From a virus: a DNA stretch of 39,554 nucleotides. A model generated the notes under the pieces. It searched no databases and had not been told where the DNA came from. It was given only the letters and a program-made list of their open reading frames with translations. The position numbers and the translations under genes were made by a program. The stretch spans positions 1-39,554 of IMG/VR virus record IMGVR_UViG_3300028625_000003. One strand, given 5' to 3'. Positions 5,604 through 39,212 of the stretch are shown here, one piece after another (the stretch's first letter is position 1; the number at the start of each line of letters is the position of its first letter).

Positions 5604-5606
5604 TTT

Positions 5607-6816: not shown

Positions 6817-6850
6817 GCTTGTTTGTGGATAATCCTTCCAGGAGACACTG

Positions 6851-20658: not shown

Positions 20659-20659
20659 T

Positions 20660-21757: not shown

Positions 21758-21768
21758 GGGGGACCGGT

Positions 21769-24487: not shown

Positions 24488-24499
24488 CGGGGGGAATCC

Positions 24500-25903
24500 A
24501 TGGCCACCCACTTGCTCCGGTTGTACACGTCGGCGGGGACGGCGCTCAACACCTTCCCCATCTGGACGGAGGAGTTCAATCCCATTCCCTGCCGTGTCGA
24601 TCCCGCCACGATCGAGGGGATGGTTCGCAACGGCCAAGATCCCGACCTCCTGCTCCCGCCCATCGAACAGCCCTGGTCGGGAATGCTGCTTGACAACAGC
24701 CCGACCAAGACGGTGCGCCAGGCCCTGAACGAGATCGAGGCCGTTCTCGTGCAGGCGGCCATCCGCAAGACGCGGCGGGCCGGCGTGCGGGCCTTCCTGG
24801 AGGTCGACGTCGACGGCGCGGGCGACTACTGGCGCAGCGAGATTTTCGGGGGGGACGTGGCCCTGCAATCGGGGGAGCTCGGCATTCCCTGGCTGGCCGG
24901 CAAGGTGAGGATCTCCGGCACACTGCTCCGCTCGTTCTGCTGGGAAGGGGCCAAGACGGCCATCGATCTGAACAACGGCCACGGCGGGGGCACGACCGGC
25001 ATCCAGATCGACAATGCCCACGACGTCGGCGGCCGTGACAACTACGGGGCGTTCGCCGGCATCGACGGCGTGGTCCCGGCGCCCATCCACGTCAGCCTGG
25101 AGAACACCCTGAACGACCCGGCCAACACCTACCGGATCTACGCGGGGCAGATGGTCTTGTTCAGCGGCGCGACCTTTCCCTCGGGCGTCAGAGAGGGGGA
25201 GCTGGGGGACGGCGGCGTCGACCACGTCTGCGCGTCCTGCTCGAACGACGGTTACAGCACGTTCGCCGTCCCGGCCGCGGACGGCCGCATCACCTACTGG
25301 TCGCTGACCGGGGGGACGGGCTGGCTGCGCACCGACCAGGTGCGGCACTGGCTGATTATGGCCCGCGTCCACTCCGCCGTGCCGACCGGCATGGTGGCCT
25401 CGTGCAAGATCGCCTTTCCCACGGGGGCGACGACGACGCCTATCGTCTGGACGAACCCTGTCGTCCTGACGGCCGGGGCCCATTCCCGCCAGGTCCTGGG
25501 CATCCTGCGCATCGCCCCGTGGCTGGCCGGCGACACCTCGACCCTGGCCTCGATGCAGCTGGAGCTGTGGGGCTACGTCGCGGGCGGCGGCAGCCTCGAC
25601 CTCGATTGCCTCGATTGCGTTCCCCTGGATCACTGGCGCATCTACAACCCGATCACGCGCGGCCTGGCCTTCGGGGACACCTTCAACGACGACGCCACGG
25701 AAGGGCTGATCTACGTCGACCACGACGCCGGGGGGATCACCGGGCACTCGGGGCTGTACATCCCGCAGGGGCCGGGGCTGTACGCCTGGCCCGGCAAGAC
25801 ACAATCCATGATCTTTTACGAAACGAACGACGCGGGGGCTGCCGAGGTCGACCGCACCCACACCCTGACGGCGTGGTATCGCCCGCGGAGGCTGACGCTG
25901 TGA
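24500..25903 (+). CDS. distal tail protein-like (minor tail protein)
   Basis: ORF track 24500..25903; first gene after the tape measure. Confidence 0.5.
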   Translation: MATHLLRLYTSAGTALNTFPIWTEEFNPIPCRVDPATIEGMVRNGQDPDLLLPPIEQPWSGMLLDNSPTKTVRQALNEIEAVLVQAAIRKTRRAGVRAFLEVDVDGAGDYWRSEIFGGDVALQSGELGIPWLAGKVRISGTLLRSFCWEGAKTAIDLNNGHGGGTTGIQIDNAHDVGGRDNYGAFAGIDGVVPAPIHVSLENTLNDPANTYRIYAGQMVLFSGATFPSGVREGELGDGGVDHVCASCSNDGYSTFAVPAADGRITYWSLTGGTGWLRTDQVRHWLIMARVHSAVPTGMVASCKIAFPTGATTTPIVWTNPVVLTAGAHSRQVLGILRIAPWLAGDTSTLASMQLELWGYVAGGGSLDLDCLDCVPLDHWRIYNPITRGLAFGDTFNDDATEGLIYVDHDAGGITGHSGLYIPQGPGLYAWPGKTQSMIFYETNDAGAAEVDRTHTLTAWYRPRRLTL

Positions 25904-27513
25904 GCGACAAAGACACCCGCCTGGCCGCGACGGTCTTCGACCGCAGCTTCGCCGCCGCTCCCGGGTTTCCTCCTGTCGAGCTGGTGGTGCAGGGCTTCAG
26001 CGTGGACTTGTTCGGAGCGGTCGAAGCCCAGATCGACGCGCAGGGCGATCTGCTGTCCTTGTGGGAGCTGTTCCGCTGGCTGCGCGCCCACGTCGAGCTG
26101 GACGCGGACCGCCCGGAAGCGGCCTTCGTCGGCTTCATCAACTCGGTGACGGTGCACACGGGGAGGGCCGCCTACACGGCGACCCTCTCGCGGGTCTTCA
26201 ACAAGGTCTACGTCGTCTACAGCGAGATCGCGGGGGGGACGCAGACGACGCCGCAGAAGACGACGGCGGCGTCGGATACGGAGAGCCAGGCGATCTACGG
26301 GATCAAGGAAGGGATCGCCACGCTCAACGATTCGACCGCGGAAGCCGCGGAGGCCTACCGGGACAGCCTGATCACCGGGGACGCCGCCCAAAGCTGGCCG
26401 CGCCTGGACCCGGAACAGGGCAGCATGGACAGCACGCCGGCGGCTGAGATCACCCTGCGGGGCTACTGGGACACCCTCGCTCTCTGGCGGTATTTCGGCC
26501 GGCCGCCGGCCCAGGAAGCCTACGACGTCGAGCCGCCCACGGTGGCCGACAAGCAGCGCTTCGGAGACGACACGGACAGGGCCGGCGTCGCGCAATCGTT
26601 CACCCTGACGGCCGGCGAGGACTTTAACCTGGCCAGCGTGTCGTTCTACATCCAGAAGGTTTCCCCTTCCGGGGGGGCGTGGCCGGTTGGCAATGACGTC
26701 GTCGTCGAGGTCTGCCCGGACGACGGGGCCGGAGATCCGGACTTCATGTCCCCAATCGAGTCCATTACGCTCCTGGCGAGCGACATCACCCCACAGCTCG
26801 TCAAGGTGACGGTGATCTTTTCGAACACGAACCCTCTTTCGGCGACGGCGCCCCTCGACTACTGGCTCGTTCTGGGGCACACCGGCGCGGACGACCCCGA
26901 TCACTACTACTTCGTCGGGACGCCCGAAGCGGCCGGCCATCCGGGGAAATTCCGCATCTACGACAGCGTCGCGGGAACGTGGTCGGCCCGCGTTCCGGAC
27001 GCCGACCTGTCCTTCGTGATCGGGGGGACCATCGAGACGACGACCCTGATCGCCGGCGTGGTTTCCGGCGTCGGGCAGTTCTTTGCCGGGACGTCCATCC
27101 TGACGGCTGGCGGGATCTATCAGAGCGCGTACCGCAACGGGGACGACCTGGCGGGGGACGTGATCGTCGATCTCCTGAACGTCAGGACGGCGGCCGGGGA
27201 GCGGCTGACGGCCCGTGTCGACAAGGACCGCTACCTCGTCGTCGACACGACCCCGGCCTTCGACAAGGACGAGCTGGCCTTCTTCGTGGGAGCGGGCGGC
27301 CTCTTGTACGACAAGGCCGGCGAGCTCGTCCCCGCGCACGTCTGTCCCGTGGGCCAGTGGATCGGCTTTCTCGACTTGCCGGACGGATTCGAGGACAGCA
27401 GCCTCGTCAAGTTCGGGCCGTTCCTGGCGGAGCGTGGCGAGTACCGTGTTGGGGAAGGCTGGCGCGTCTATCGCGCCGATCCCCTCGACGCCTTCTCGAC
27501 CGGCATGGGGTAA
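25900..27513 (+). CDS. tail tip / baseplate-like minor tail protein
   Basis: Inside ORF 25402..27513; GTG 25900 overlaps the preceding TGA (GTGA). Confidence 0.5.
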   Translation: MSDKDTRLAATVFDRSFAAAPGFPPVELVVQGFSVDLFGAVEAQIDAQGDLLSLWELFRWLRAHVELDADRPEAAFVGFINSVTVHTGRAAYTATLSRVFNKVYVVYSEIAGGTQTTPQKTTAASDTESQAIYGIKEGIATLNDSTAEAAEAYRDSLITGDAAQSWPRLDPEQGSMDSTPAAEITLRGYWDTLALWRYFGRPPAQEAYDVEPPTVADKQRFGDDTDRAGVAQSFTLTAGEDFNLASVSFYIQKVSPSGGAWPVGNDVVVEVCPDDGAGDPDFMSPIESITLLASDITPQLVKVTVIFSNTNPLSATAPLDYWLVLGHTGADDPDHYYFVGTPEAAGHPGKFRIYDSVAGTWSARVPDADLSFVIGGTIETTTLIAGVVSGVGQFFAGTSILTAGGIYQSAYRNGDDLAGDVIVDLLNVRTAAGERLTARVDKDRYLVVDTTPAFDKDELAFFVGAGGLLYDKAGELVPAHVCPVGQWIGFLDLPDGFEDSSLVKFGPFLAERGEYRVGEGWRVYRADPLDAFSTGMG

Positions 27514-27516
27514 ACC

Positions 27517-29079
27517 ATGAAAAACACGAAACAGACGCGCACCCAATGGCCCTTGATTCAGCGCCGGATCGGCGCGACCGCGGCCGCCTCGCCCGTATCG
27601 TCGGAGCACGATCCCGTGTCTCTCTCGACGGAGCTTGCCGACGTCTTGTCGGTTGGGGCCACCCAGGAACTCGACCTGGACACGCAAGTCAAGAACAAGG
27701 TCTTGGCCGGGCCATCCGCCGGCGCGGACGCGAAGCCCGCGTTCCGGCTCCTGGTCGCCGACGACATACCATCCCCGGGCCTGCATGCCGCCGTGACCCT
27801 GGCCGCCAGCGCGACGCCGATTCTCGGCCTGACCGGGCAAGATGTCTCCTTCGACGACCAGGATGCCGCGACTGTCCTGGCAGGCCCGGCGCCAGGCTAC
27901 CCATCCGCTGCCCCTGCCTTTCGGTCGCTCGTTTATCAGGACTTCTGGACGCTGCTGCCCGGCTGTAAACCGGCGATGACTCCGTATACGGCCACGATAG
28001 AAAACCCGTGCCTCATTGTCGATGCCTCGGCGGGCAACGTTGTCATCCAGCTCGACGCTGGCATGCCGAACGGGGCCATCGTCGCCATTGTGAAGTCGGA
28101 CGGGAGCACTTACACGGTCACCTTCACCGGGACTGGCGGGGACACCGTTTTGGGGAACGTTACGCTGGACAAACAGTATACGGCCGTGATGTTCCAGCAT
28201 TATAGCAGTGGCTGGCATCCTCTCGGTACTTTCAAGCTCGTCGCCGACCACGACCTGATCGCCAAGCACACCTACACTGGCGGCTCTGCGCTGGACGTGG
28301 TTGGCCTCTCCGCGGCCAGCACGCCGGCGCTGCTGACGCCCTCGGCGAACCCCGGCGCGGCCAGCGCCATCCTCAAGAGTGACGCCGCGGGCAAGGTGCA
28401 GCTCGTGGCGATGGGGATCAACAATGCCGTCCCCGCCGCGGCCGGCGACGTCCACGCCGGGGCCGACATCCGGGCGGCCGGGGGATGCTACCTCGGGGGC
28501 GTCGGCGCCGATCCACCGGCCGGCGCTCTCCAGACGACGGATTACGTTGCTGCCGGCGGCGGCGTCCACGTGGGCGAGACGACCGACCCGGGGGACGACG
28601 TGCTGGCCATTTCCTCCTATTCTCTGCGTCGTGTTGTCGTCAAGACGGGCCTATCTGACAATGTTGCCACCGCCGTCTTCACCATCACCACCACCAATGA
28701 GGCCGGCGACACGGACGGGGGCGGTTTTTACTGTCACGTGCGGGCCCTGGTAGGGCATGGAATAGCCAATAACGCGGCGAATGACGCGGCAATGGCCTAT
28801 CAGGGGGCCTTTGTGCGAGCAGCGCTGAATACGGGGGCGGGAGGAAACTCGACGGTGGTGGACCTGGTCAACTCCACCACCCTGCGCGCCGCGACAAATG
28901 CCCTGGCTCGCCAGATCGACAGGATAACGATGACTGTCACGGAAACCAGCGAGTACGTGCAGACAGTGAACTTCACAGTTGACTTGTCAGGAGCGTCCGT
29001 GGGAACTGCCGAGGTGATTGCCGAGGTCGAGCTGATCTGGTATGGGTATCTAACCGCTCCCATCATCGCGGCGGCCTAG
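27517..29079 (+). CDS. tail fibre protein
   Basis: ORF track 27517..29079. An N-terminal tail-fibre anchor motif occurs twice: VLAGPSAGADAKPAFRLLVADDIP and VLAGPAPGYPSAAPAFRSLVYQDF. Confidence 0.7.
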   Translation: MKNTKQTRTQWPLIQRRIGATAAASPVSSEHDPVSLSTELADVLSVGATQELDLDTQVKNKVLAGPSAGADAKPAFRLLVADDIPSPGLHAAVTLAASATPILGLTGQDVSFDDQDAATVLAGPAPGYPSAAPAFRSLVYQDFWTLLPGCKPAMTPYTATIENPCLIVDASAGNVVIQLDAGMPNGAIVAIVKSDGSTYTVTFTGTGGDTVLGNVTLDKQYTAVMFQHYSSGWHPLGTFKLVADHDLIAKHTYTGGSALDVVGLSAASTPALLTPSANPGAASAILKSDAAGKVQLVAMGINNAVPAAAGDVHAGADIRAAGGCYLGGVGADPPAGALQTTDYVAAGGGVHVGETTDPGDDVLAISSYSLRRVVVKTGLSDNVATAVFTITTTNEAGDTDGGGFYCHVRALVGHGIANNAANDAAMAYQGAFVRAALNTGAGGNSTVVDLVNSTTLRAATNALARQIDRITMTVTETSEYVQTVNFTVDLSGASVGTAEVIAEVELIWYGYLTAPIIAAA

Positions 29080-29283
29080 ATCTAGAGGAGATGATCGGGC
29101 ATTGGAGACAGGCCGCCGGGCTGGGCGATCGGTGAGCGCTACGAGTAGGACCAACCACCGGGGCATTTTCATGCGCGTGTCCGACCTCCTCAGGCTGCCG
29201 CCGGCGCTGTTGGCTGGAGACCGGCGGCCAAGGCAACCTGTATAGTGCCCGGCAAGATGCGTGTGTCCATCGACTACTCCGGC

Positions 29284-29315
29284 GTTGTTTCGTCTGGTTT
29301 CCCAGCCGTAACAAC
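29284..29315 (-). promoter_or_regulatory. conserved GAAA-tetraloop hairpin element, copy B
   Basis: Minus strand reads GTTGTTACGGCTGG-GAAA-CCAGACGAAACAAC. Starts 5 nt after the TAA of gene 29321..30124. Confidence 0.65.
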
Positions 29316-29320
29316 ACGCT

Positions 29321-30124
29321 TTATGTGCCTGCCCCCTTTGCCTGGGCTGCCTGGGCTGCCCGGCTGGGCTGGGTGGGTGGGCCGTGTTCGAGTAAAATCG
29401 CCGGTATGTTGACATATTGCCAGTAGCTTTGAATGGACCGCAGCGCCTCCTCGAGGTCCGCGGCAAAGCGCCCGCAGCCCCCGGGGCCCCGGTCTACGAC
29501 CAGGCGCAGCGGGGCCGTGGTCAGGACCTGGAGCACCGCGTCGTACCACTGCCGCTCCCGGCTCGTCGGGCCCGCCTGGTCGTCCACCCAGTTCGAGCGC
29601 GCCAGGCCCACGGCTTTCTGGCGGGGATCGCAGCCCTGCTGCTCGGTGTAGGCCCAGGCCACCTTGACGAAGTCGGCGACGGCCGTTTGCGCGCGCACAC
29701 GCGGCCCATTCAGCCCGTGGATGGGGATATCGCCCCGCGCGGGGGCGGGCCCGGCCGGCTGGTAGCGGTTTGTGCGCGGGCGGCCCGGCTCGCCGATGTA
29801 GCCGTCGTGATTGAGGTCGATGCCCAGCTCGTCCTCCAGCGCCCAACGCCGTAGCCGCTCCTCCGTCGCCTGTTGTTCCTGCAGCCGCGCCTGTGCCTCG
29901 GCCTGGCGCACCTCCGCGCTACTGTGGGCCGCGTCGTGGACGGCCGTCAGCGCCGCGGTGACGGCGCCACAGAACCCGACGAGGCCGGCCAGGACGCCGG
30001 GGATCCCCAGCATCGCCGCGGCGACGGCGCGCAGATCCCCGCCGCCGGCGCGCAGGACCAGCACGGTGGCGGCACAAAGCAGGCCACTCAAACCCAACAG
30101 CAACAGGTGCGTCCAGATCTTCAT
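29321..30124 (-). CDS. membrane protein (2 N-terminal TM, coiled coil, DxNxDG-containing C-terminal domain), function unknown
   Basis: ORF track 29321..30124; ATGA overlap with the upstream small membrane gene. Confidence 0.65.
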   Translation of the reverse strand: MKIWTHLLLLGLSGLLCAATVLVLRAGGGDLRAVAAAMLGIPGVLAGLVGFCGAVTAALTAVHDAAHSSAEVRQAEAQARLQEQQATEERLRRWALEDELGIDLNHDGYIGEPGRPRTNRYQPAGPAPARGDIPIHGLNGPRVRAQTAVADFVKVAWAYTEQQGCDPRQKAVGLARSNWVDDQAGPTSRERQWYDAVLQVLTTAPLRLVVDRGPGGCGRFAADLEEALRSIQSYWQYVNIPAILLEHGPPTQPSRAAQAAQAKGAGT

Positions 30125-30306
30125 CGTGCCACCACCAGCCAGAGAATGACCACCAGCGCGATCAGCACCGCCGCGGCCAGGAGGAGGATGGCGTCGACGC
30201 GCCCCTGGCCGCGCGTGCGGCGGTGCCGGCCGAGCACGCCGAGGACCAGGGCCAGGAGGAGCGCCAGGAGCGAGCCGGAGAGCCAGTCCAGGAAGGTCAT
30301 AGCCAT
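30121..30306 (-). CDS. small 2-TM membrane protein (holin-like size and topology)
   Basis: ORF track 30121..30306. Confidence 0.55.
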   Translation of the reverse strand: MAMTFLDWLSGSLLALLLALVLGVLGRHRRTRGQGRVDAILLLAAAVLIALVVILWLVVAR

Positions 30307-30366
30307 TTCTCCAAAACCTTCACACCGCGTTCTACTTTTAGCCGCAAGCGTTCTGAAAACTGCCCC

Positions 30367-30403
30367 TTGACAATCTATCTAGATTCTGGTATAATCTAGA
30401 TAG
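30367..30403 (+). promoter_or_regulatory. perfect consensus sigma70 promoter with an overlapping 10-bp inverted-repeat operator
   Basis: TTGACA 30367-30372, 17-nt spacer, TGg, TATAAT 30390-30395. CTATCTAGAT (30375-30384) and ATCTAGATAG (30394-30403) are exact reverse complements. Confidence 0.8.
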
Positions 30404-30438
30404 TAAAGATGATTGAGCGCAAGCAAGGAGGAGAACCG

Positions 30439-30720
30439 ATGAATCAGAGCAAAGAACAGGCCCAGCAAGAGGCGCGGCAGATGCGGGATAGCAAGGGCGG
30501 TGGCCCGGTTCAAATCCGCTGGATCGATGAGGATGGTGTGGGGCTGGTCTTTTTCGATGCGGCCCCCTGGGAGCTGCGGGTCGAGTGGGCCGTAGCCCCC
30601 CGCGAGCACCACCAATTAAGCCGGGCCGAACAGGCCGCCCTGTTGCGTGCCCAGCCCGATGATATGGCCCGCCACTGGAGCATTCAGGAAGAAGAGCTGT
30701 ACCGCGAATTCTATGGATAA
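30439..30720 (+). CDS. small acidic hypothetical protein (93 aa)
   Basis: Inside ORF 30409..30720; ATG 30439 lies 6 nt after AAGGAGGAG. Confidence 0.65.
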   Translation: MNQSKEQAQQEARQMRDSKGGGPVQIRWIDEDGVGLVFFDAAPWELRVEWAVAPREHHQLSRAEQAALLRAQPDDMARHWSIQEEELYREFYG

Positions 30721-30736
30721 GAAAAGGAGGAACCCA

Positions 30737-31363
30737 ATGAGCAGCACAATCGGCCTGTACTTGGACATCTCGCAGGAAGCCGCGAACCAACTCCGGGACC
30801 GCCTCAACAGGCTGGCCTTTCGCCTGGGATACAGCGCCCGGCGTGGCCCCACTTACGGCGAGGGCAATCTCGCCGCCCTGCTCCAGGGCGTCGACGCTGG
30901 CGATTGCGAGATCGTCCGGCGCCGCTACTGGGCCCGCGACGACAACGACCTCTTTGATGGCCTGATCGGCTGGGCCAATATCTACCCGCCGTCCTCCGCG
31001 GTCGTGGCCGCGGCCCTGGCCGATGTGCCGGAGAAATACCGCGCCGCCATCGAGGGTGCATTTAGCGCCGGGGCTATGGACCTGCGGCCCGTGCCGCCGG
31101 GGGGCATGGCCTCCTGGGGCCGCGTGGACCGCTGGGCCATCGACCTGGCCGAGGACTGGAGCGCCGAATTCGGGCTGGCTATAGATGCCGATCTGTGGGC
31201 CGAGGACGAGTGCCACGACGCCGCATACAGCTTCGCCCTGGATGTCGCCACCGCCACCGACCAGGAACTGCAGGCCAGGCTGGCCGGCGACCCCACCGCG
31301 GGCCAGGGCACCGCCTGGGGCATCGACGAGGAGACGGACCGGGCATGGTACGCGGCCCGCTAG
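30737..31363 (+). CDS. acidic hypothetical protein (208 aa) with a possible N-terminal ribbon-helix-helix
   Basis: Inside ORF 30647..31363; ATG 30737 after AAAGGAGGAA. N-terminus TIGLYLDISQEAANQLRDRLNRLAFRLG...NLAALLQGV. Confidence 0.65.
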   Translation: MSSTIGLYLDISQEAANQLRDRLNRLAFRLGYSARRGPTYGEGNLAALLQGVDAGDCEIVRRRYWARDDNDLFDGLIGWANIYPPSSAVVAAALADVPEKYRAAIEGAFSAGAMDLRPVPPGGMASWGRVDRWAIDLAEDWSAEFGLAIDADLWAEDECHDAAYSFALDVATATDQELQARLAGDPTAGQGTAWGIDEETDRAWYAAR

Positions 31364-31375
31364 TCGCCGTCCCTC

Positions 31376-31411
31376 AAGCCCCTGCCCCCCGCGGGCGGGG
31401 GCTTTGCTTTG
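31376..31411 (+). terminator. intrinsic terminator closing the two-gene plus-strand cassette
   Basis: GCCCC(T)GCCC...GGGC(G)GGGGC forms a ~10-12-bp GC stem followed by TTTGCTTTG. Confidence 0.7.
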
Positions 31412-31416
31412 CCGCA

Positions 31417-31752
31417 TCATCTCCCCTCCTCCCCCGCGAGCAGTTGCCGCCACGCGCTGCGGCTCTCCGGCAGCGGCAGCTCTAGCCCCAGGCACAGCAC
31501 CGCCAGCGCCCGTGCGTACCATTGGCAGTAAGCCACGTCGCGGCCGGCCAGTTGCACCGTGAGACACAGCGATTCGCACAGCGGCAGGAGTCGATCGGCG
31601 GCGAAAACGGCGTTGCGGTTCAGCGCCCGCATGAGGTGGCCCAGGCTAGTATTGAACGGGTGCGCGGTGTCGTCCGGGGCCGGGCCGGCCGCGATAAGGA
31701 CAAGGGCGCGGGCATTGAGCATGTCGCAGGAGATGAGGTATTCGTGGGTCAT
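31417..31752 (-). CDS. hypothetical protein (111 aa)
   Basis: ORF track 31417..31752; ATGA overlap with the upstream gene. Confidence 0.55.
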   Translation of the reverse strand: MTHEYLISCDMLNARALVLIAAGPAPDDTAHPFNTSLGHLMRALNRNAVFAADRLLPLCESLCLTVQLAGRDVAYCQWYARALAVLCLGLELPLPESRSAWRQLLAGEEGR

Positions 31753-31958
31753 CTCCCCCCCCTGGCCCTCGCCACGGCGTACAGCACGCCCCCGACCACC
31801 ACGGCCGCGACGACGACCACGGCGAGATAGAACAGCGGCGAGATCTCCGTTCCGGGCTGCGGCTCCGGTACCGCGGCCATGACCTGCGCCTCGAGCCGCG
31901 GCATGTAGACCAGGGCGGCGATGCCCACGGCGGCGAGCAGTAGGGCGATGGCGATCAT
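31749..31958 (-). CDS. small 2-TM membrane protein (69 aa)
   Basis: Inside ORF 31749..32051; ATG 31958 after AGGAGG. Confidence 0.55.
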   Translation of the reverse strand: MIAIALLLAAVGIAALVYMPRLEAQVMAAVPEPQPGTEISPLFYLAVVVVAAVVVGGVLYAVARARGGR

Positions 31959-32563
31959 TGCGCCTCCTGTGCTTGGCTCACGGCGGCACGTGCGCGGCAT
32001 TGCCGCAGGTGCGCGGCGTACTGCGGCTGGCTCTCGCAGGTGCGGCCGCACAGCGGGCAGTCATACCGCTTGTGCCCGTTGCCGGGTGCGGGGTGCGGTT
32101 CCGTTTCCTCGGCACTTTCGCGCAACTCCGCAGGTTTCGTAACACGCGCGGGCGCAGGAGGCGCCGGCTTTACGGCGGGCCGCGCATCCATCCGGCGGAA
32201 ATACGCCAGGGCGACAATGAGCGCGGGAATCGGCAGCGCCAGTGCCCAGTCGCCGCCGTAGTAGCGGAGGTGGTACGCCCCGGAAATCACCGTCAGGCCG
32301 GCCGCGACGAACCAGCGTACGGCGTATTGCCGCCAGTCGGAGCGGCTGTAGCGGGCGGCGATATTGACGGCGCGATAGTGGCCCAGGTCGACCAGTACCC
32401 CCAGGGGCAGGGCGACGAACCAGGGATCGACCGCGCTCAGGATGGCGATATAGTGCGCGGCGGACACGATCACCAGGAGCGGTACGAGGTCGCCGTCTTC
32501 GAACCAGCGCACGAGCCAGCGGGCCGCGGCGGCAATCCAGGCGAGCGGGCGGCGGGCGGTCAT
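31955..32563 (-). CDS. polytopic membrane protein with a C-terminal cytoplasmic zinc-finger (CPLCGRTCESQPQYAAHLRQC)
   Basis: Inside ORF 31955..32707; ATG 32563 after GGAGG. About 4 hydrophobic helices. Confidence 0.6.
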   Translation of the reverse strand: MTARRPLAWIAAAARWLVRWFEDGDLVPLLVIVSAAHYIAILSAVDPWFVALPLGVLVDLGHYRAVNIAARYSRSDWRQYAVRWFVAAGLTVISGAYHLRYYGGDWALALPIPALIVALAYFRRMDARPAVKPAPPAPARVTKPAELRESAEETEPHPAPGNGHKRYDCPLCGRTCESQPQYAAHLRQCRARAAVSQAQEAQ

Positions 32564-32817
32564 TTCGCAGCCTCCATCTCTGCCACGATGCGCGGCACGT
32601 CGCACTTGTCGATATCCCCGCAGCATGTAGTCAGCTCCCCCGGTAGGCTGCGGCACGCGCCATAGCTGCCGTTGTAGGCCGGGGTGCGGCCGCAATAGAA
32701 CGGGCAATAGTCGTCCATCAGAAAGCGGTGGGCCAGCGCCTCTTTGCTCACAATCGGCATAGTGCGGCGGATAAAATCCCCGTCGTGATAGTCGATGAAC
32801 GTATACGTCTCAGTCAT
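32560..32817 (-). CDS. Cys-rich small protein (85 aa)
   Basis: Inside ORF 32560..33186; ATG 32817 after GGAGGAGGAG. Confidence 0.6.
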   Translation of the reverse strand: MTETYTFIDYHDGDFIRRTMPIVSKEALAHRFLMDDYCPFYCGRTPAYNGSYGACRSLPGELTTCCGDIDKCDVPRIVAEMEAAK

Positions 32818-33440
32818 CACTCCTCCTCCCCCGCGAGTGCATCCAGGCGGGCGGCCCAGGCGCGGGCGGCGGCGCGTTCCGTGCGTTTCAGCGGGCGCGC
32901 GCCAGCAGCCCGCAACAGCCCCGCCGCGTCCGGCGGGAACGTGGCCCGGAGGCGGGCGAGTTCTTCGCCCAGCTCCCCGGCGAGGTCGGCCTGGGCCATT
33001 GCTACGCCCTGGGCATCTCGCCATAAGCGACGGTACAACCTGGCAACATGCTTCCACCGCGCGGCCCACCGGCGGGAAACGGCGAGGGCGTCCCGGCAGG
33101 CGGCCCAACTCAGGTCCTGGGCCGTCACGAGGACACGCAGGCGTTCGTTTTCGGCGGCGAGGCGGTCGCGTTCCCAGGCGTTGCAACTAGCCCTCCCCCG
33201 CGCCTCCTCTTCCTCTTTCCGCAAGCGGTCTCCTTCATGCGCGGCGTTCTGCCAGTTGACCCGGCGCAACTCCGATTCCTTCCGCAGCCGCTCCACCTCG
33301 GCGGCGAGGCGGTCGCGTTCCACTAGCAACGCAGCGATACGATTGTTCAGTTCGCACCGTTCCGGCGTGCCATCGAATACTAGCGGCGGGTCGAATTGAA
33401 CGTTGAGCAGGCATCCATCGGTGGGCATTTCGTCGTCCAT
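32817..33440 (-). CDS. coiled-coil protein (207 aa)
   Basis: Inside ORF 32817..33656; ATG 33440 after AAGGAGGAATGAC. Confidence 0.6.
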   Translation of the reverse strand: MDDEMPTDGCLLNVQFDPPLVFDGTPERCELNNRIAALLVERDRLAAEVERLRKESELRRVNWQNAAHEGDRLRKEEEEARGRASCNAWERDRLAAENERLRVLVTAQDLSWAACRDALAVSRRWAARWKHVARLYRRLWRDAQGVAMAQADLAGELGEELARLRATFPPDAAGLLRAAGARPLKRTERAAARAWAARLDALAGEEE

Positions 33441-33441
33441 G

Positions 33442-33723
33442 TCATTCCTCCTTGCTCTCCAATGCCCGCAGCTCTCGCGCCGCCGCCGCCAGTTGCAGGG
33501 CGTGGTTGTTGTCCCCGTCCGCCGCCAGCGCAATGGCGAGCGAGTCCAGCAGGTCGGGGTCCAGGTGCGCCAGGACGCGGCGACAGGCGTCGCGGTCGGC
33601 GGCGATGCTCTTGGCCTCTTGCGCCAGTCCCGCGATGTAATCCGCCAATTTGCCAATCATCTCTGTTTCGCCGGCAATGGCCTTTGCCGCTTCTTGGGCA
33701 AATCTGTCAAAGGCACTCATCAT
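33442..33723 (-). CDS. hypothetical helical protein (about 92 aa)
   Basis: ORF track 33442..33723. Tandem ATGs at 33723 and 33720 after AAGGAGGA. Confidence 0.6.
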   Translation of the reverse strand: MMSAFDRFAQEAAKAIAGETEMIGKLADYIAGLAQEAKSIAADRDACRRVLAHLDPDLLDSLAIALAADGDNNHALQLAAAARELRALESKEE

Positions 33724-33734
33724 TCCTCCTTGTC

Positions 33735-34157
33735 TCAGTGGAAACCCACGTCCTGGCCCGCCTCGTGCGCCTCCCGCAGCCCGTTGATAAACTGCTGCGT
33801 TTTCGCCCGCCAGTTGCCGATGTGTCCGGGATCGTCGCCGTCGGGCAGGAGTGGCAGTAGTTCGGCCAGGCGGTCAGCCAGCGGGCCGCAGTATATGGCA
33901 GGAATCCACCCGTCACAATCGGAATGATCCAACAGCACATGGAGCACATCGGGCCGCAGGGCATCCCATTTGATAGGCAGGCATTGATACCATTCCTGGT
34001 CCTCGCAGCCCGCAAACGCATAATGATGGCCCATCGGAAAAAAACCTTCCATCAAATCCAATGGGGGCAACCCGGCAACCTCCGCCAACTTTTTCCGCCA
34101 GCGCATAAAGGCACTGTAGGCTCCGTGCCAGCAATCGTGCGACGTATCGAGTCCCAT
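33735..34157 (-). CDS. hypothetical protein (140 aa, His/Cys/Trp-rich)
   Basis: Inside ORF 33735..34370; ATG 34157 after AAGGAGGACTGAT. Confidence 0.6.
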   Translation of the reverse strand: MGLDTSHDCWHGAYSAFMRWRKKLAEVAGLPPLDLMEGFFPMGHHYAFAGCEDQEWYQCLPIKWDALRPDVLHVLLDHSDCDGWIPAIYCGPLADRLAELLPLLPDGDDPGHIGNWRAKTQQFINGLREAHEAGQDVGFH

Positions 34158-34158
34158 A

Positions 34159-34407
34159 TCAGTCCTCCTTGTCTCGATAGCATTCCGCACTACAGCGGCA
34201 GTCACCCGGCCGCACAACCTGCATCGGCGCCCCGCAGCGGGGGCAGGTCGCGGGCCAGGTGGAGCCAAAGCCGTCGCTGACCGTGGCGAGCCGGCTGCGG
34301 TAGTCGGAGCATCCGGCCGGCCCGATGCAACGGGCGCCGGTGAATGTGCAACAGCCGATAGAGCCGTCACCCAGGCCGTACCACGAAAAGCATTCCATAG
34401 GATTCAT
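34159..34407 (-). CDS. Cys-rich zinc-ribbon protein (82 aa)
   Basis: Inside ORF 34159..34431. Cys pattern CPRCGAPM...CRCSAEC. Confidence 0.55.
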   Translation of the reverse strand: MNPMECFSWYGLGDGSIGCCTFTGARCIGPAGCSDYRSRLATVSDGFGSTWPATCPRCGAPMQVVRPGDCRCSAECYRDKED

Positions 34408-34802
34408 CGCCCATGCTCCTGTTGATGGCACTCCTCACAGTACGTTACCAAGTCCCGCTTCCTCTCGGGCAGCCGCAGCGCGTACCACCACCATTTTCGG
34501 TACGTCCCCGGCAGGTGATGCGCCTCCATATGCCACTCTTCATCGGCCCGGCATCGCTGGCAGGTCCACCCGTCGCGCCGCTTCACCTGCCAGGACAGCC
34601 GATGCCAGCGGCGGCTGTTCAGGTAGCGGCGGTACCAGAACCACCAGTCGCCCCAGCGCGCGTTCACCGGCCAGGCCAACACGACCGCCGCCCCGGCCAG
34701 GACGACCAGGCCGGCGACCAGCCCGGGCTGCAGCCGGGTGGTGAGCCAGCCGGCCAGGCCGGCGGCCAGGAGAGTGAGGACACCGAGCAGGATCCTACGC
34801 AT
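34404..34802 (-). CDS. HNH endonuclease domain preceded by two N-terminal transmembrane helices
   Basis: Inside ORF 34404..35057; ATG 34802 after GGAGG. TM segments ILLGVLTLLAAGLAGWL and GLVAGLVVLAGAAVVLAW. HNH core WTCQRCRA...MEAHHL...LVTYCEECHQQEH. Confidence 0.7.
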   Translation of the reverse strand: MRRILLGVLTLLAAGLAGWLTTRLQPGLVAGLVVLAGAAVVLAWPVNARWGDWWFWYRRYLNSRRWHRLSWQVKRRDGWTCQRCRADEEWHMEAHHLPGTYRKWWWYALRLPERKRDLVTYCEECHQQEHGR

Positions 34803-35079
34803 CGGCGGCCTCCAGCATTGTTTCGTCTGGTTTCCCAGATGCAACAACGCGCTCCTGGTACGCCGCCAGCAGTTGCTGGCCGGCGCGGAAGAAATCGCCG
34901 CCGGTGGTCTGGACCGCGGCGCGGACCTGGTCGCGGGTAGCCACCAGGCAGCGCTTGAATTCAACCTCGCCGATCGGCAGTCGGCAATAGTAGTCGCCGG
35001 CGATGAGCAGGACCGCCGTGGCCACGTTGTAGTAGCAAAGTTCCAAGGCCCGCGCAAACGTCAACGGTCTATCGCGCAT
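34795..35079 (-). CDS. hypothetical protein (94 aa)
   Basis: Inside ORF 34795..35310; ATG 35079 after GGAGGGGG. Confidence 0.55.
   Translation of the reverse strand: MRDRPLTFARALELCYYNVATAVLLIAGDYYCRLPIGEVEFKRCLVATRDQVRAAVQTTGGDFFRAGQQLLAAYQERVVASGKPDETMLEAADA
34817..34848 (-). promoter_or_regulatory. conserved GAAA-tetraloop hairpin element, copy C
   Basis: Minus strand reads GTTGTTGCATCTGG-GAAA-CCAGACGAAACAAT. Ends 14 nt before ATG 34802 with GGAGG in between. Confidence 0.65.
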
Positions 35080-35897
35080 CACGCCCCCTCCGTTGTTCCG
35101 TCTGGTTTCCCACCCGCACCAACCCACCCCACCTTTTCCCGCCAGGCGGCGAGTGCAGCCGCGCAGCCCTCGGGGGGCGGATAGTCCCAGCGTACGGCGT
35201 CGCGCAATACATACCGCGCGATGCGTTCGCAGATTGTGCCCAAATCTGGAATGCGAGCGATCTTGTCGCTGCGATCGGCGTGGTACCCAGGATTGCCGGC
35301 CATGTGCCACAGCACGGCCCGCATGGCCCCCAGGTCCTGGGCCCGCAGCGCCCGGGCCAGCTCCTGCACGGTCGCCTCGCGCAGTTTCCGGGCCTCCTCT
35401 TTCCGCTGCTCCTCAGCCGCCGCCCGCTCCGCCGCCCGCTCCGCCGTTGCCTTCTCCCGGCAGGAGGAGCAGAGGAAGTCGCGGTGGTCGATGGTCCCCT
35501 CGTAGGGGGCAAAGTCGCTCGCCGGCTTGGACTGGTCGCAGCGCGTGCACGTCTTGCGCGGTTCCGGCGGGGACGGCGGCGCGGCCGCGGCCTTTTTCGC
35601 GGCGTGATGCCGGCGCACCGCGGTCACGCGATGCTGCTTCCCACACTCCCGGCAGAAGAGCTGGCGGCCCCCGACGTTGCCCCGGGCGAGGTTCTTGCTG
35701 AATTCAGTGATAGGCTTGACCACGCCGCACTCCACACAGCGGCGGGTCTCCTCTCCCAGCACCTCGACGGCCTCTACCGGGGGAGCGGGCTCGACAGGCG
35801 CATAGTCGGCGCATCCCGAGCAGGCCTGGGGCGTGGGGAGAACGTTGCGGCGGTCGCAGTTCCGGCCATGGCGGTGGCGGCAATCGGCGCTGGCCAT
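35079..35897 (-). CDS. Cys-rich protein with two CxxC-(22-24 aa)-CxxC zinc-ribbon repeats and a helical C-terminal domain (regulator candidate)
   Basis: Part of ORF 35079..36554. ATG 35897, with GTG 35762 as an alternative start. Repeats CVECGVVKPITEF...CRECG and CTRCDQSKPASDF...CSSC. Confidence 0.55.
   Translation of the reverse strand: MASADCRHRHGRNCDRRNVLPTPQACSGCADYAPVEPAPPVEAVEVLGEETRRCVECGVVKPITEFSKNLARGNVGGRQLFCRECGKQHRVTAVRRHHAAKKAAAAPPSPPEPRKTCTRCDQSKPASDFAPYEGTIDHRDFLCSSCREKATAERAAERAAAEEQRKEEARKLREATVQELARALRAQDLGAMRAVLWHMAGNPGYHADRSDKIARIPDLGTICERIARYVLRDAVRWDYPPPEGCAAALAAWREKVGWVGAGGKPDGTTEGA
35092..35123 (-). promoter_or_regulatory. conserved GAAA-tetraloop hairpin element, copy D
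   Basis: Minus strand reads GTTGGTGCGGGTGG-GAAA-CCAGACGGAACAAC. Ends 12 nt before ATG 35079 with GGAGGGGG in between. Confidence 0.6.
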
Positions 35898-36361
35898 CTG
35901 GCTGGCCAGGAGGTGAGCCGGGACGAGGAAATCGACGGCCCGAGCACCAGCGTCCCCGTCACCCACCCGTCCTGGACCAGCCCCGGGATCTCCAACGCCA
36001 GGGGCCAGGGGATCTCCCCGGCGATCTGCAGCTCCTGGATCCGCGGGAGGTCCTCCGGGTGCGCATAGTCGCAGACCCGCACCCGCCAGCTCTGGCTCCC
36101 GATACGGAGCGTCCCCGTCCGGTTGCGGTCCGTCCGGTACCAGGTCGCCACGCACCATTCCCCCGGGGCCGGCCGAACGTTCTGCCGGGCCGCGATCCCG
36201 CACTTCTCCGTCGCCGGACAGGTCCAGTCTCCCCAGGTCGGCCCGTATAGCACGATCTTGCCCGTCCTCTGCTCTGTCCAGGAGGGCATTGACCCGGACG
36301 TGGTCGTCGTAGGTGGGGAAGAGATCCCCAGCACCAGGGCGATCAGTAGATCGATCAGCAT
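35774..36361 (-). CDS. secreted/anchored RlpA- or 3D-like double-psi beta-barrel protein (candidate peptidoglycan lytic enzyme)
   Basis: ORF track 35774..36361. N-terminal signal-anchor MLIDLLIALVLGISS. GKIVLYGPTWGD...WRVRVCDYAHPEDLPR...GWVTGTLVL is loosely RlpA-like by eye. The last ~40 codons overlap the next gene. Confidence 0.5.
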   Translation of the reverse strand: MLIDLLIALVLGISSPPTTTTSGSMPSWTEQRTGKIVLYGPTWGDWTCPATEKCGIAARQNVRPAPGEWCVATWYRTDRNRTGTLRIGSQSWRVRVCDYAHPEDLPRIQELQIAGEIPWPLALEIPGLVQDGWVTGTLVLGPSISSSRLTSWPARWPAPIAATAMAGTATAATFSPRPRPARDAPTMRLSSPLPR

Positions 36362-36464
36362 GGTGATACTCCTCGAGCAGCTGCACCAGCCGCGCGTTTG
36401 CTCTCGTCAATTGCTCGTTCTGGCGGAGCAGGGATTGCACGAAAAGGGTCTCGGTATGGTTCAT
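36362..36464 (-). CDS. short coding-looking ORF (MNHTETLFVQSLLRQNEQLTRANARLVQLLEEYHH...) with no stop codon of its own
   Basis: ATG 36464 overlaps the upstream TGA (TGATG). The frame stays open down to 35079 (ORF 35079..36554). Confidence 0.3.
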
Positions 36465-36583
36465 CAGCTCAACTCCTTGGCGGATTCCTTGGTAAACGTC
36501 ACCCGCGGCACCTTGTTCAGGGCCTTGCGCCGGGCGGCGAGATGGCGCAAGCATGCGGCACAGACGACGGAGATGTGCACCAT
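36464..36583 (-). CDS. 39-aa basic peptide (MVHISVVCAACLRHLAARRKALNKVPRVTFTKESAKELS)
   Basis: ATG 36583 lies 7 nt after the AAGGAG at the end of dnaB; inside ORF 36464..36763. Confidence 0.4.
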   Translation of the reverse strand: MVHISVVCAACLRHLAARRKALNKVPRVTFTKESAKELS

Positions 36584-36587
36584 CGGG

Positions 36588-38682: not shown

Positions 38683-38685
38683 GTT

Positions 38686-39048
38686 TTACTCCTTGGCGGT
38701 GGGGACCAGGCGTCCCCGCTCGTCCCGCCCATTGGCCACCCGCGCCAATCCCCCGGCGCGATGCCAGGCCCGCTTGTCCCCGGCGGTGGCCACGCGGTAG
38801 CCCTTCCGGCCCCAGGCTGCGAGCAGCCGGTGGACTTCCGCCGCGCCGAACATCCGGACGCGCTCGGTATAGCGGGCCCGCGTCCAGGCCGCATAGTGCC
38901 CCTGCTCCCGGTGCCAGTCGTTGTGGCATTGGCTGTGGCAGGGCACCGTCTCTCCGGCCGGATCGCCGCCGTCGACGCGAGGTACCAGGTGATGGTGGTG
39001 GAGTTCGTCGGGCGAGATCTCGCGGTGACAGAAGAAACAGGTGGTCAC
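38686..39048 (-). CDS. HNH endonuclease
   Basis: ORF track 38686..39048; GTG after GGAGGG. CFFCHREISPDELHHHHLVPRVDGG...VPCHSQCHNDWH. Confidence 0.8.
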   Translation of the reverse strand: MTTCFFCHREISPDELHHHHLVPRVDGGDPAGETVPCHSQCHNDWHREQGHYAAWTRARYTERVRMFGAAEVHRLLAAWGRKGYRVATAGDKRAWHRAGGLARVANGRDERGRLVPTAKE

Positions 39049-39212
39049 GGTACCCTCCGGCGGCCGGCCATACTGCGGAGCAGCTGGTCTAGGCAGCAGA
39101 TCACGTCCCAGCGGTGCAGGCGATGGCTGCCGCAGCGGGGGCAGAGGGACGGGCGGATGTAATAGGCGATATCGCCGGGGCCATAGGTCGTACCGCAGTG
39201 GGGACAGAACAT
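39045..39212 (-). CDS. zinc-ribbon protein (55 aa)
   Basis: Inside ORF 39045..39233; ATG 39212 overlaps the stop of the DUF5131 gene. MFCPHCG...CPRCG. Confidence 0.55.
   Translation of the reverse strand: MFCPHCGTTYGPGDIAYYIRPSLCPRCGSHRLHRWDVICCLDQLLRSMAGRRRVP

Follow-up and report, generated by a model that had tools for sequence, protein, structure and literature searches.

A probable Aca-like, self-repressing accessory operon with exchangeable cargo in phages of uncultivated hosts

A two-gene cassette in the virus record IMGVR_UViG_3300028625_000003 of IMG/VR is probably an Aca-like, autorepressed accessory operon with swappable cargo, and its regulator has a possible effector domain as fusion partner. 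The analysed stretch of DNA, 39,554 nucleotides in full, is called the window throughout. The regulatory part of this reading is well supported by comparison among phages, and we consider it highly probable that the N-terminal domain of the second gene product (ORF2) and the operator at the cassette promoter form a self-repressing module. A role of the cargo in counter-defence or host takeover is a plausible but tentative proposal, made because of the architecture of the operon and because an ADP-ribosyltransferase and mini-GNATs occupy the same slot in other phages. In what follows, we describe the cassette, the distribution of its parts among phages, and the alternative readings that have to be weighed.

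Organization of the cassette

The cassette is encoded on the plus strand, and the genes on both sides of it run leftward; they occupy positions 29321-30306 on one side and extend from 31417 onward on the other. All features of the self-contained, two-gene unit that an earlier sequence-only reading had recognized here are present, and an independent gene call on the public contig gave the same pair of genes. ORF1 (30439-30720, plus strand) encodes an acidic protein of 93 aa (pI 4.96) and has GGAGG 7 nt upstream, and ORF2 (30737-31363, plus strand) encodes an acidic protein of 208 aa (pI 4.30) and has AGGAGG 6 nt upstream, in agreement with the acidic nature and strong Shine-Dalgarno sequences attributed to both. 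The gap between the two genes is 16 bp. Downstream of ORF2, an intrinsic terminator-like hairpin (31376-31411, plus strand) is formed by a 12-bp G+C stem (31376-31404) followed by UUUGCUUUG, and it sits between the convergent ORF2 and a 111-aa leftward gene ending at 31417. Both elements of the terminator that was thought to close the unit are present, though the stem (-26.3 kcal/mol) reaches a z-score of only -1.75 against shuffles of the same G+C-rich stretch. An equivalent unit at another locus (L012) is followed by a closely resembling hairpin and tail.

The cassette promoter (30367-30395, plus strand) has the sigma-70 form TTGACA-17-TGgTATAAT. Specifically, the -35 element TTGACA (30367-30372) is followed by a 17-nt spacer, with an extended -10 TG at 30387-30388 and the -10 element TATAAT at 30390-30395. 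This is the sole 12/12 consensus match in the window and has the extended -10 in addition, whereas the runners-up, at 8898 and 5603, reach 10/12; the description of the cassette promoter as the best in the window was thus confirmed. The promoter region (132 bp) has 44% G+C as opposed to 68% G+C in the genome.

Searches of GenBank phages by tblastn (ORF1 and ORF2) and by megablast (19.5 kb of the window) gave no match. Relatives of the flanking genes, which were sought for an empty site, were not found in GenBank phages or IMG/VR. The same cassette is present in L005 with another left flank, the mosaic junction being located at window position 30260, and this different flank denotes mosaicism rather than an empty site.

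Operator palindromes at the promoter

Two palindromic units overlie the promoter. Operator O1 (30373-30384), the 12-bp palindrome ATCTA-TC-TAGAT, abuts the -35 element, fills the spacer and is a perfect match to ATCTANNTAGAT. Operator O2 (30394-30405), ATCTA-GA-TAGTA, covers the final 2 nt of the -10 element together with the predicted start site, and it starts 21 bp downstream of the start of O1. The pair of 10-bp inverted repeats first noticed at the promoter is exact, and its arms are really 11 nt long (CTATCTAGATT at 30375-30385 and AATCTAGATAG at 30393-30403) and 100% complementary. A single long inverted repeat, however, describes the arrangement less well than two 12-bp palindromes of the form ATCTA-N2-TAGAT with a spacing of 21 bp. 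Exact copies of ATCTAGAT occur at only two places in 39.5 kb, namely the two promoter repeat sites. Likewise, ATCTANNTAGAT with at most one mismatch has a single match, at 30373, where shuffled sequence would give 0.09 matches, in a test run on the window only.

The phage has a main, divergent switch of the CI/XRE type, marked by an XRE protein at 5721-6146. A CI/XRE repressor was considered as regulator of the cassette and rejected, because the repeated motif at the main switch (GGGCCTAT) is unlike the cassette operator and no ATCTA-type site is found there.

Domain composition of ORF2

An exhaustive HMMER search resolved ORF2 into two separate phage modules, an N-domain and a C-domain, the genes of which are not neighbours elsewhere. 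Their fusion was observed in one lineage only, which comprises the window, L010 and L011. The architecture proposed from the letters, i.e., a promoter with an operator, a small acidic ORF and a downstream autorepressor, holds in its outline, but the gene taken for the autorepressor is a two-module fusion.

The N-domain (residues 1-62; 30737-30922, plus strand) is basic (pI 9.1) and is the candidate DNA-binding autorepressor module. It is represented by about 50 cluster representatives, with E-values down to 3e-21 in the exhaustive HMMER search, and is almost always N-terminal. The consensus reads M.TIGLYF..L.Q.EANALR.RLN..A..LGY.A.RGPT.G.GNLAALL.AID.GE., with Arg, Asn, and Thr positions conserved among the aligned members, and in one member (P0065) the domain is tandemly duplicated. 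Another candidate, P0064 (2515 aa, seven weak N-domain matches), is an ankyrin-repeat protein and was discarded, since the matches are a repeat artefact.

Searches of Pfam, PDB, PHROG, and NCBIfam with the N-domain gave no match. No HTH model of Pfam was significant on ORF2 or on 51 N-domain members (the best, DUF2089-HTH, reached E=0.08 in 4 of the 51), and the RHH families of Pfam did not match the same proteins at E up to 1. Comparison of the N-domain with RHH references by hhalign returned a probability of 1%, which is a weak test either way. The AlphaFold model of ORF2 has a pLDDT of 26-44 over residues 1-70, and Foldseek found no meaningful match for it. The RHH fold previously read from a strand/helix/helix pattern at the N-terminus of ORF2 is a possible one: the residue pattern fits if a loop insertion is allowed, but neither the RHH models of Pfam nor hhalign lend it support. 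We regard the N-domain as a probable autorepressor of an undescribed family, its DNA binding being suggested by co-occurrence with the operator motif.

The C-domain (residues 68-205; 30938-31351, plus strand) is acidic and Trp-rich (pI 4.05; 27 D+E and 7 W in 142 aa). As a phage module in its own right, it has 8 stand-alone representatives of 122-204 aa in the exhaustive HMMER search. At L016, a separate gene encodes it; this gene is preceded by 320 bp of intergenic DNA, and neither an N-domain gene nor ORF1 is close by. The family has no significant match in PDB or PHROG; a PDB profile hit to a segment of a portal protein (E=0.14) was treated as chance. The C-domain is a possible effector or partner-binding domain.

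The putative regulatory module in other phages

Seven phage lineages (GC 51-68%) have an N-domain gene in an operon under a sigma-70-like promoter with ATCTA-N2-TAGAT units. These are the window with L010; L013; L014 with L191, counted as one lineage (cargo 75% identical); L185; L186; L188; and L190, a small sample of loci that includes several short contigs. Across the seven lineages, the palindrome units are found in the spacer and/or at -10/+1. A unit at the position of O1 is also present in L013, L014, L185, L186, L190, and L191, and one at the -10/+1 edge in these same loci and in L188, which has a single unit only. The promoters before the N-domain operons of L013, L190, L186, and L185 are near-identical. 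At L010 the units are displaced, one being upstream of the -35 element and one in the spacer, and L189 is an N-domain locus without a recognizable operator.

The perfect palindrome occurs once per locus (twice in L185) and invariably at the promoter of the N-domain operon. The central 2 bp of the palindrome differ (TC, GA, GG, TA, GC, and AT) and its 5-bp half-sites are conserved, the pattern that binding by a dimer would lead one to expect. The N-domain proteins that accompany these conserved half-sites are only 40-70% identical. An all-against-all BLASTP comparison of the window, L010, L012, L013, L014, L185, L186, L188, and L189 revealed the N-domain as the sole shared protein. The guilt-by-association test that had been proposed, i.e., whether different small ORFs stand next to a conserved ORF2, was thus positive for the N-terminal 60 residues of ORF2, but whole ORF2 is not the conserved unit.

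A reciprocal, DNA-side scan of IMG/VR with the paired-operator pattern retrieved four distinct loci with GC >0.5 and a TTGACA or TTGCAA -35 element. Two of these four are both of the positive controls, with clear N-domain genes, and the remaining two share a small protein that is possibly a distant, short-loop relative of the N-domain, a link that is statistically weak. The motif is present at L193 and L202, where the N-domain relative is only doubtful. AT-rich matches of the scan had neither a TTGACA/TTGCAA-type -35 element at that position nor an N-domain gene. As a negative control, the looser pattern CTATCTAG-N6-8-TATWATCTA was searched in IMG/VR and GTDB; it gave chance matches only, in A+T-rich genomes, and the N-domain gene was absent from 1.27 Mb of them.

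Cargo genes

The regulator is accompanied by one to six unrelated genes, and the cargo is different in each of the seven lineages while the N-domain is constant. In the window the cargo is ORF1, and in L014/L191 it is an acidic protein of 102-107 aa. L186 and L202 each have a mini-GNAT (46% identical to one another), L190 has an ADP-ribosyltransferase (PF03496, E=7.6e-19), and L185 and L013 have three to six orphan ORFs. Searches of all cargo with Pfam, and of the window proteins with PHROGs and PADLOC, detected no known Acr or anti-defence protein. A GNAT-type Acr, AcrVA5, has been described (PMC11021501).

ORF1 itself is a swappable cargo gene. Compared with two homologues, it has a dN/dS of ~0.1 at dS >1, which indicates purifying selection. 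Its GC3 of 0.71 is below that of the other genes measured (0.83-0.92), and only three non-identical homologues were found among 5.8 billion proteins. ORF1 homologues (83% identity) are present at L006-L009 without ORF2, behind a different consensus promoter and followed by unrelated genes, and L011 has a variant of ORF1 whose C-terminal half is unrelated. The occurrence in other regulatory contexts, the low GC3, and the mosaic junction in L005 suggest that ORF1 behaves as mobile cargo.

Neither ORF1 nor ORF2 matched any entry in Pfam, PHROG, NCBIfam, PADLOC, or PDB, which bears out the initial remark that no family is recognizable for either protein. PDB sequence profiles gave nothing significant for ORF1, a k-mer-seeded protein search with ORF1 and ORF2 returned only close relatives of the cassette itself, and profiles of ORF1 or whole ORF2 had no matches in IMG/VR, JGI metagenomes, or GTDB genomes. 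Structure prediction followed by Foldseek, another suggestion of the sequence-only reading, was carried out for both proteins but was uninformative: from shallow alignments, AlphaFold2 reached pLDDT values of 48 and 56 for the two proteins, and all Foldseek matches had E >0.6.

Discussion

The arrangement of promoter, operators, and genes allows a sequence of events to be proposed. Host sigma-70 RNA polymerase would fire at the consensus promoter once the DNA enters the cell, giving ORF1 and ORF2. The basic N-terminal 60 residues of ORF2 would then bind both ATCTA-N2-TAGAT palindromes, most likely with one dimer on each. With a distance of about two helical turns between them, both units would lie on one face of the DNA. 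Since O1 is in the -35/-10 spacer and O2 over the -10 edge and start site, polymerase should be kept out, and the operon silenced, when they are occupied. Position and comparison thus point to a burst of expression that may be followed by negative feedback. Regulator and operator would constitute a portable module, and the genes beneath it would be interchangeable. In the window phage the cargo would comprise ORF1 and the acidic, Trp-rich domain that forms one polypeptide with the regulator, and cargo proteins would most likely be early accessory proteins acting on host or defence components.

The same regulatory module could also govern cargo that serves the lysogen, i.e., a classical moron expressed from the prophage for superinfection exclusion, host fitness, or conversion, with autorepression holding a steady low level instead of permitting a burst. 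We consider this unlikely. The phage does have a CI/XRE-type protein at a divergent switch, but the scanned ORFs did not include an integrase. The self-contained promoter and terminator, the orientation opposite to the neighbours, the atypical GC3 of ORF1, and the mosaic junction at the left edge of the cassette in L005 are all as expected of a moron, yet no close relative without the unit was found in GenBank phages or IMG/VR to show insertion, and in most other lineages the module is co-oriented at the end of the early/replication gene block and not inserted in the late region. The ADP-ribosyltransferase in the L190 slot could equally be a toxin/effector gene, but the sequences of ORF1 and ORF2 show no signal for membrane insertion or secretion, which exclusion proteins typically have. 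Morons (Juhala et al. 2000) are defined by their absence from otherwise syntenic relatives. To our knowledge, they do not as a rule come with an autorepressor of their own and a conserved operator. The cassette is like them in being an autonomous promoter-gene-terminator unit between phage modules, with a first gene of atypical composition, and unlike them in having a putative dedicated autorepressor and a conserved operator. The moron concept is used in PMC2920897 and PMC2629481.

Two further readings concern the regulator. The palindromes might be bound by a host regulator or by another phage protein, in which case the N-domain would not bind DNA and could be, e.g., a protein-protein interaction module. 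This we judge quite improbable: although PDB, Pfam, and hhalign allow no DNA-binding fold to be assigned to the N-domain, it is basic, almost always located at the extreme N-terminus, and carries conserved Arg, Asn, and Thr positions. The N-domain of L189 without the motif, and the motif of L193 and L202 beside doubtful N-domain relatives, would fit another binder. On the other hand, the N-domain is the sole protein common to the loci compared, the complete genome has the motif only at the promoter of the N-domain-encoding operon, and the range of locus GC (51-68%) makes a single host factor unlikely. The cassette had also been likened to a toxin-antitoxin module, and a type II-like pair would have ORF2 as antitoxin (DNA-binding N-terminus, toxin-binding C-terminus) and ORF1 as toxin. 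The pair is compact, with its 16-bp gap, and antitoxins typically have an N-terminal DNA-binding module and autoregulation at promoter palindromes. Nevertheless, ORF1 is acidic and matched no toxin family, L006-L009 have ORF1 but not ORF2, and L016 has the C-domain but not ORF1. Moreover, the regulator is accompanied by one to six unrelated genes, which is incompatible with a constant pair of partners, and we regard this reading as very improbable indeed.

The Aca-like reading can be set against several known systems. Aca proteins repress strong acr promoters via inverted repeats over the core promoter (PMC13551039, PMC9410906, PMC9638941), and Aca-regulated anti-CRISPR and anti-defence operons are also covered in PMC6765145. 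Like these operons, the cassette and its relatives combine a strong promoter, presumably constitutive and independent of phage factors, with inverted repeats that overlie the core promoter around -10. A small, putative regulator gene is kept while its neighbours change, and the cargo is made up mostly of unannotated small proteins with occasional enzymes. The differences lie in the window-type operator, a 12-bp palindrome present twice ~21 bp apart, and in that the N-domain loci, where repression is predicted, come from uncultivated phages (GC 51-68%) and have no known acr gene in their operons. Unlike Aca1-Aca13, which are HTH proteins, the N-domain has no significant HTH match in Pfam. Aca14, an RHH protein reported in 2026, was the first non-HTH Aca (PMC13551039); its prototype is WP_005725436.1 of Pasteurella multocida. 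The N-domain, by contrast, matches no RHH model. It does resemble the RHH proteins Arc, Mnt, and CopG in its predicted order of a beta-strand (TIGLYF), a first helix (A), a turn with Gly, and a second helix (B), all in the first ~60 residues. These repressors have short promoter palindromes bound by more than one dimer, as is proposed for the N-domain. TraY is a single-chain tandem RHH protein, to which the tandemly duplicated N-domain of P0065 bears a likeness. Unlike Arc, Mnt, and CopG, however, the N-domain has a ~6-8-residue insertion (A.RGPT.G.G) between helices A and B and an extra conserved strand-like segment after helix B, and the RHH profile comparison was not significant.

Regulators fused to inhibitors provide another parallel. 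AcrIIA1 is said to be such a bifunctional fusion (Osuna et al. 2020). ORF2 resembles fusions of the AcrIIA1/AcrIF24 type in joining a putative N-terminal promoter-binding module to a domain that is also stand-alone in other phages, and differs from them in that its C-domain is only a possible effector and the fusion is found only in the window/L010/L011 lineage. Some Acr proteins have a built-in regulatory domain (PMC13551039, PMC9410906, PMC9638941), and regulator-inhibitor fusions include AcrIF24 (PMC9638941), AcrIE10 (PMC13530269), and AcrIF25, with its RHH domain (PMC13551039).

If true, the Aca-like reading of the cassette would add a regulator family that is invisible to Pfam, NCBIfam, and PHROGs, and a short, specific operator (duplicate ATCTA-N2-TAGAT over a consensus promoter) suited to direct DNA searches. 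Anti-CRISPR and other counter-defence proteins are discovered mainly through guilt by association with Aca regulators, an approach largely limited to HTH Aca families of cultivated Proteobacteria and Firmicutes. The cassette and its relatives would give a first cargo list from phages of uncultivated hosts, consisting of ORF1, the C-domain, the acidic 102-107-aa protein, the mini-GNATs, the ADP-ribosyltransferase, and >10 orphans. A bolder and rather doubtful step would be to see in the N-domain a new Aca class with a previously unrecognized fold family, distinct both from canonical HTH proteins and from any RHH that databases recognize and equipped with a portable 12-bp operator, and in ORF1, the C-domain, and about a dozen orphan families new immunity inhibitors. 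Should this be the case, the immune systems inhibited would be those of uncultivated bacteria from soil and wastewater, mostly of high G+C. ORF2 would then unite regulator and inhibitor in a natural fusion, and the operator motif could be used as a sequence tag to mine counter-defence genes in metagenomes. The N-domain and its palindrome, with conserved half-sites and a variable centre, would in addition make a clean, testable protein-DNA recognition pair.

The cassette in its genomic setting

At about 39.5 kb and 68% G+C, the window amounts to a practically complete genome from an uncultivated tailed phage. An ENA metagenome contig (ERZ27257502 k141_260099; 39,568 bp) was 100% identical to it across the 20.3 kb retrieved and wrapped from the window's end to its start, and no DNA-level relatives of positions 20000-39554 (19.5 kb) were found among GenBank phages. 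Early and replication genes (DnaB helicase, replication initiator, HNH nucleases) run leftward, while the rightward block comprises methyltransferase, small and large terminase, portal, protease-capsid, tape measure and tail genes. The main regulatory switch is divergent and lies near 5.6 kb (5575-6146): a leftward promoter (TTGACT-17-TATACT, 5603-5575) faces away from the gene of a 141-aa XRE/HTH_31 protein (5721-6146; Pfam E=8e-17), beside which the intergenic region carries GGGCCTAT three times (5610-5617 in reverse complement, 5659-5666 and 5716-5723). Between this switch and the terminase genes, a 490-aa DNA methyltransferase gene (6851-8323; phrog_67, E=2e-57) is bracketed by long, 12-13-bp hairpins (6788-6817 and 8688-8718), as if it were a separate insertion.

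On one side of the plus-strand cassette is the tail module, with two leftward membrane-protein genes; on the other, starting at 31417, is the far end of the leftward early block. Every element listed by the sequence-only reading was found in place. Its promoter, TTGACA-17-TGgTATAAT (30367-30395), is indeed the best in the window, as the sole site scoring 12/12 with an extended -10; the inverted repeat is exact, with arms that are in fact 11 nt each, and the exact ATCTAGAT is absent from the rest of the genome. G+C content falls to 44% in the promoter region, against 68% genome-wide. ORF1 (30439-30720, 93 aa) and ORF2 (30737-31363, 208 aa) have strong Shine-Dalgarno sequences 6-7 nt upstream (GGAGG and AGGAGG, respectively), encode acidic proteins (pI 4.96 and 4.30), and were also called as genes, independently, on public contigs. 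The unit is closed by a terminator (31376-31411) made of a 12-bp G+C hairpin (-26.3 kcal/mol) and a U-rich tail. For ORF1, a dN/dS of about 0.1 with saturated synonymous sites points to strong purifying selection.

Divergent from the cassette, on the minus strand (29321-30306), are genes for a 61-aa protein with two transmembrane segments and a 267-aa protein with N-terminal transmembrane segments; neither matched a family, and they may have lysis or membrane functions. Both units share a 132-bp A+T-rich intergenic region in which no leftward promoter of at least 9/12 was found, so the cassette's predicted operators might also influence expression of the membrane-protein genes. A 44-bp direct repeat (86% identical) has one copy directly after the stop of the 267-aa gene (29277-29320) and another within the early region (34810-34853); it may mark a boundary, serve in recombination or act as a shared terminator.

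ORF2 as a two-module protein

As anticipated, neither protein could be assigned to a family: ORF1 and ORF2 had no match in Pfam, PHROGs, PADLOC, NCBIfam or PDB sequences. A k-mer-seeded search of 5.8 billion proteins returned cassette relatives only; identical copies aside, ORF2 had a single homologue and ORF1 had three. Exhaustive HMMER searches matched residues 1-62 and 68-205 to separate protein sets, making ORF2 a fusion of two modules. The N-domain (residues 1-62; basic, pI 9.1) is represented by about 50 cluster representatives of 49-230 aa, almost always at the extreme N-terminus, and has the ordered signature TIGLYF; ..Q.EANALR.RLN..A..LGY;.A.RGPT.G.GN; LAALL.AID.GE. In one member (P0054) a T5orf172/MUG113 domain is fused ahead of it, and in another (P0065) the module is duplicated in tandem within one chain. 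The C-domain (residues 68-205) is Trp-rich and very acidic (pI 4.05), and its set comprises eight stand-alone proteins of 122-204 aa; in locus L016 it is a separate gene, 3' of a 320-bp intergenic region. Neither family had significant PDB sequence relatives or PHROG matches, the N-domain family had no Pfam match, and the two domains were not seen as neighbours outside ORF2 in the loci examined.

The N-domain's residue pattern fits the proposed ribbon-helix-helix (RHH) fold (N-terminal strand, helix A and a Gly-Tyr-Thr/Ser turn), and the tandem-duplicated P0065 is also compatible. Helix B would have to be preceded by 6-8 inserted residues. No RHH model matched the N-domain, and hhalign against reference RHH sequences, a weak test in either direction, gave a probability of 1%. 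The AlphaFold model, built from two sequences only, was unreliable over the N-domain. Either its fold is RHH in a divergent form, or it is a new one.

A recurrent candidate operator accompanies the N-domain

Contigs encoding N-domain proteins were fetched from unrelated metagenomes and their promoters aligned, which revealed one recurrent promoter-operator design: TTGACAATCTATCTAGattctgGTATAATCTAGaTAG in the window, TTGACAATCTATCTAGtaatgtgGTATAATCTAGgTAG in L013, TTGACATCTATCTAGATatactgTATAATTCTAGgTAG in L186, TTGACAaATCTATATAGATtatTATAATATCTATATAGAT in L185, TTGCAAtTTCTATCTAGTTatgtTATTATCTATCTAGAT in L014, TTGCAAtTTCTAATTAGATaccgTATAATCTAATTAGAT in L191 and TTGACAaTTCTAGCTAGActgtggTATAATCTAGATAGAA in L190. 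What these promoters share is a 12-bp palindrome, ATCTA-N2-TAGAT, with half-sites kept and a variable centre (TC, GA, GG, TA, GC, AT). It usually occurs in two copies with starts 20-23 bp apart, one adjoining the -35 and the other spanning the -10/+1 edge. L188 has only the -10-proximal unit (TATAATCTAGCTAGA), the window's closest relative (L010) has one unit in the spacer and the other ahead of the -35, and no recognisable operator was found in L189, also an N-domain locus. Each locus has one perfect match (two in L185), every time at the operator-promoter; at up to one mismatch, the window has one occurrence against 0.09 expected by chance. A 99.8% identical cassette (L005) carries a point variant of the spacer copy, TAGAT to TAGGT. 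In L013, the main operator-promoter is preceded, at a distance of about 170 bp, by a second CTATCTAG-containing site (tATTATCTATtCTATCTAGtaatATCTA, 4620-4650). This may be an additional regulated promoter, of the kind reported for Aca (anti-CRISPR-associated) proteins controlling neighbouring operons.

Loci with the N-domain span 51% to 68% G+C, and in all-against-all BLASTP that included control loci, this domain was the sole protein common to the window and the eight other N-domain loci. No N-domain gene occurred in 1.27 Mb of A+T-rich chance matches to a loose DNA pattern. With a stricter paired-operator pattern, 12 stretches were recovered from IMG/VR, among them four distinct loci with G+C >0.5 and a proper -35. 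Two of the four were positive controls, in which N-domain genes are clear; the remaining pair, L193/L198 and L202, have in common a small protein (35% identical between them) that resembles a form of the module with a shorter loop and is weakly linked to it by hmmsearch (E=0.003, small database) and hhalign (P=0.009).

Cargo genes change between lineages

Between promoter and N-domain gene, each lineage carries different genes. The expectation of a conserved ORF2 beside changing small ORFs was borne out at the level of the N-domain, not of the whole ORF2, which is a fusion. This position is taken by ORF1 in the window and, in L014 and L191, by an acidic 102-107-aa protein (75% identical between the two); L188 has one orphan of 168 aa there, L185 three orphans and L013 six. 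L190 encodes a 150-aa ADP-ribosyltransferase (7315-7767; PF03496, E=7.6e-19). Mini-GNAT acetyltransferases of about 105-111 aa are encoded in L186 (9663-9998) and L202 (first minus-strand ORF behind the promoter); the two are homologues with 46% identity. Csf3-like genes (PF27782) are common to the phages of L013 (N-domain alone) and L016 (C-domain alone); L016 is also flanked by radical-SAM and PAPS-reductase genes and L013 by a Vut_1 gene, suggesting that pathways for DNA modification or of the queuosine type lie close to these modules.

Three observations mark ORF1 itself as mobile accessory cargo. Its GC3 is atypically low (0.71, against 0.83-0.92 in the other genes measured). A variant in L011 (P0006, 55-300) is about 85% identical over its N-terminal two-thirds, unrelated in its C-terminal third and still followed by an ORF2 homologue, indicating recombination within ORF1. 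In L005 (sample ERR7570003, 1-367), the cassette sits on an unrelated left flank, with a junction at window position 30260, inside the 61-aa leftward gene. ORF1 homologues (83% identity) also occur in L006-L009 under a different perfect consensus promoter without the palindrome, followed by unrelated small genes.

An Aca-like reading of the unit

In the window, the two predicted operators lie in the promoter spacer (30373-30384) and at the -10/+1 edge (30394-30405), placed as for a repressor excluding RNA polymerase. Palindromy implies that one dimer would occupy each unit, and the spacing of about two helical turns would put both on the same DNA face, favouring cooperative binding. The comparison shows that N-domain and palindrome occur together, and in what geometry; from this we infer binding by the N-domain, repression and timing. 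The GGGCCTAT operator at the XRE switch differs from ATCTA-N2-TAGAT, and since the latter is unique to the cassette promoter in the complete genome, local autoregulation would be expected rather than a global programme.

In anti-CRISPR operons the promoter is strong and its core is overlaid by inverted repeats, the regulator is conserved, and the cargo varies and mostly lacks annotation; the same literature covers Aca14, an RHH-type regulator described recently, and Acr proteins that contain a regulatory domain of their own (PMC13551039, PMC9410906, PMC9638941, PMC13530269). Our unit resembles acr-aca loci in all four features. The acr-aca-like proposal holds for the architecture and is well supported by comparison for the regulator/operator logic; the cargo may have an anti-defence role. 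The unit was assigned to no named Aca family, its regulator having no significant match to HTH or RHH models. A toxin-antitoxin pair, also proposed, is contradicted by the free recombination of ORF1, C-domain and regulator partners. A moron, whose cargo serves the lysogen, is a serious alternative, and cargo function is the weakest part of our interpretation. ADP-ribosyltransferases and GNATs belong to the kinds of enzyme with which phages modify proteins of the host or its defences. Among anti-CRISPRs, AcrVA5 is of the GNAT type (PMC11021501); no cargo protein matched a known anti-defence protein.

Overall, the unit is best described as a putative Aca-like autorepressed accessory operon, with a regulator of an undescribed family and a conserved, portable operator; the C-domain fused to the regulator in this phage may be an effector. 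The N-domain and its palindrome form a clean, testable protein-DNA pair; if the reading is right, counter-defence genes of uncultivated phages could be mined through this regulator family and its DNA tag.
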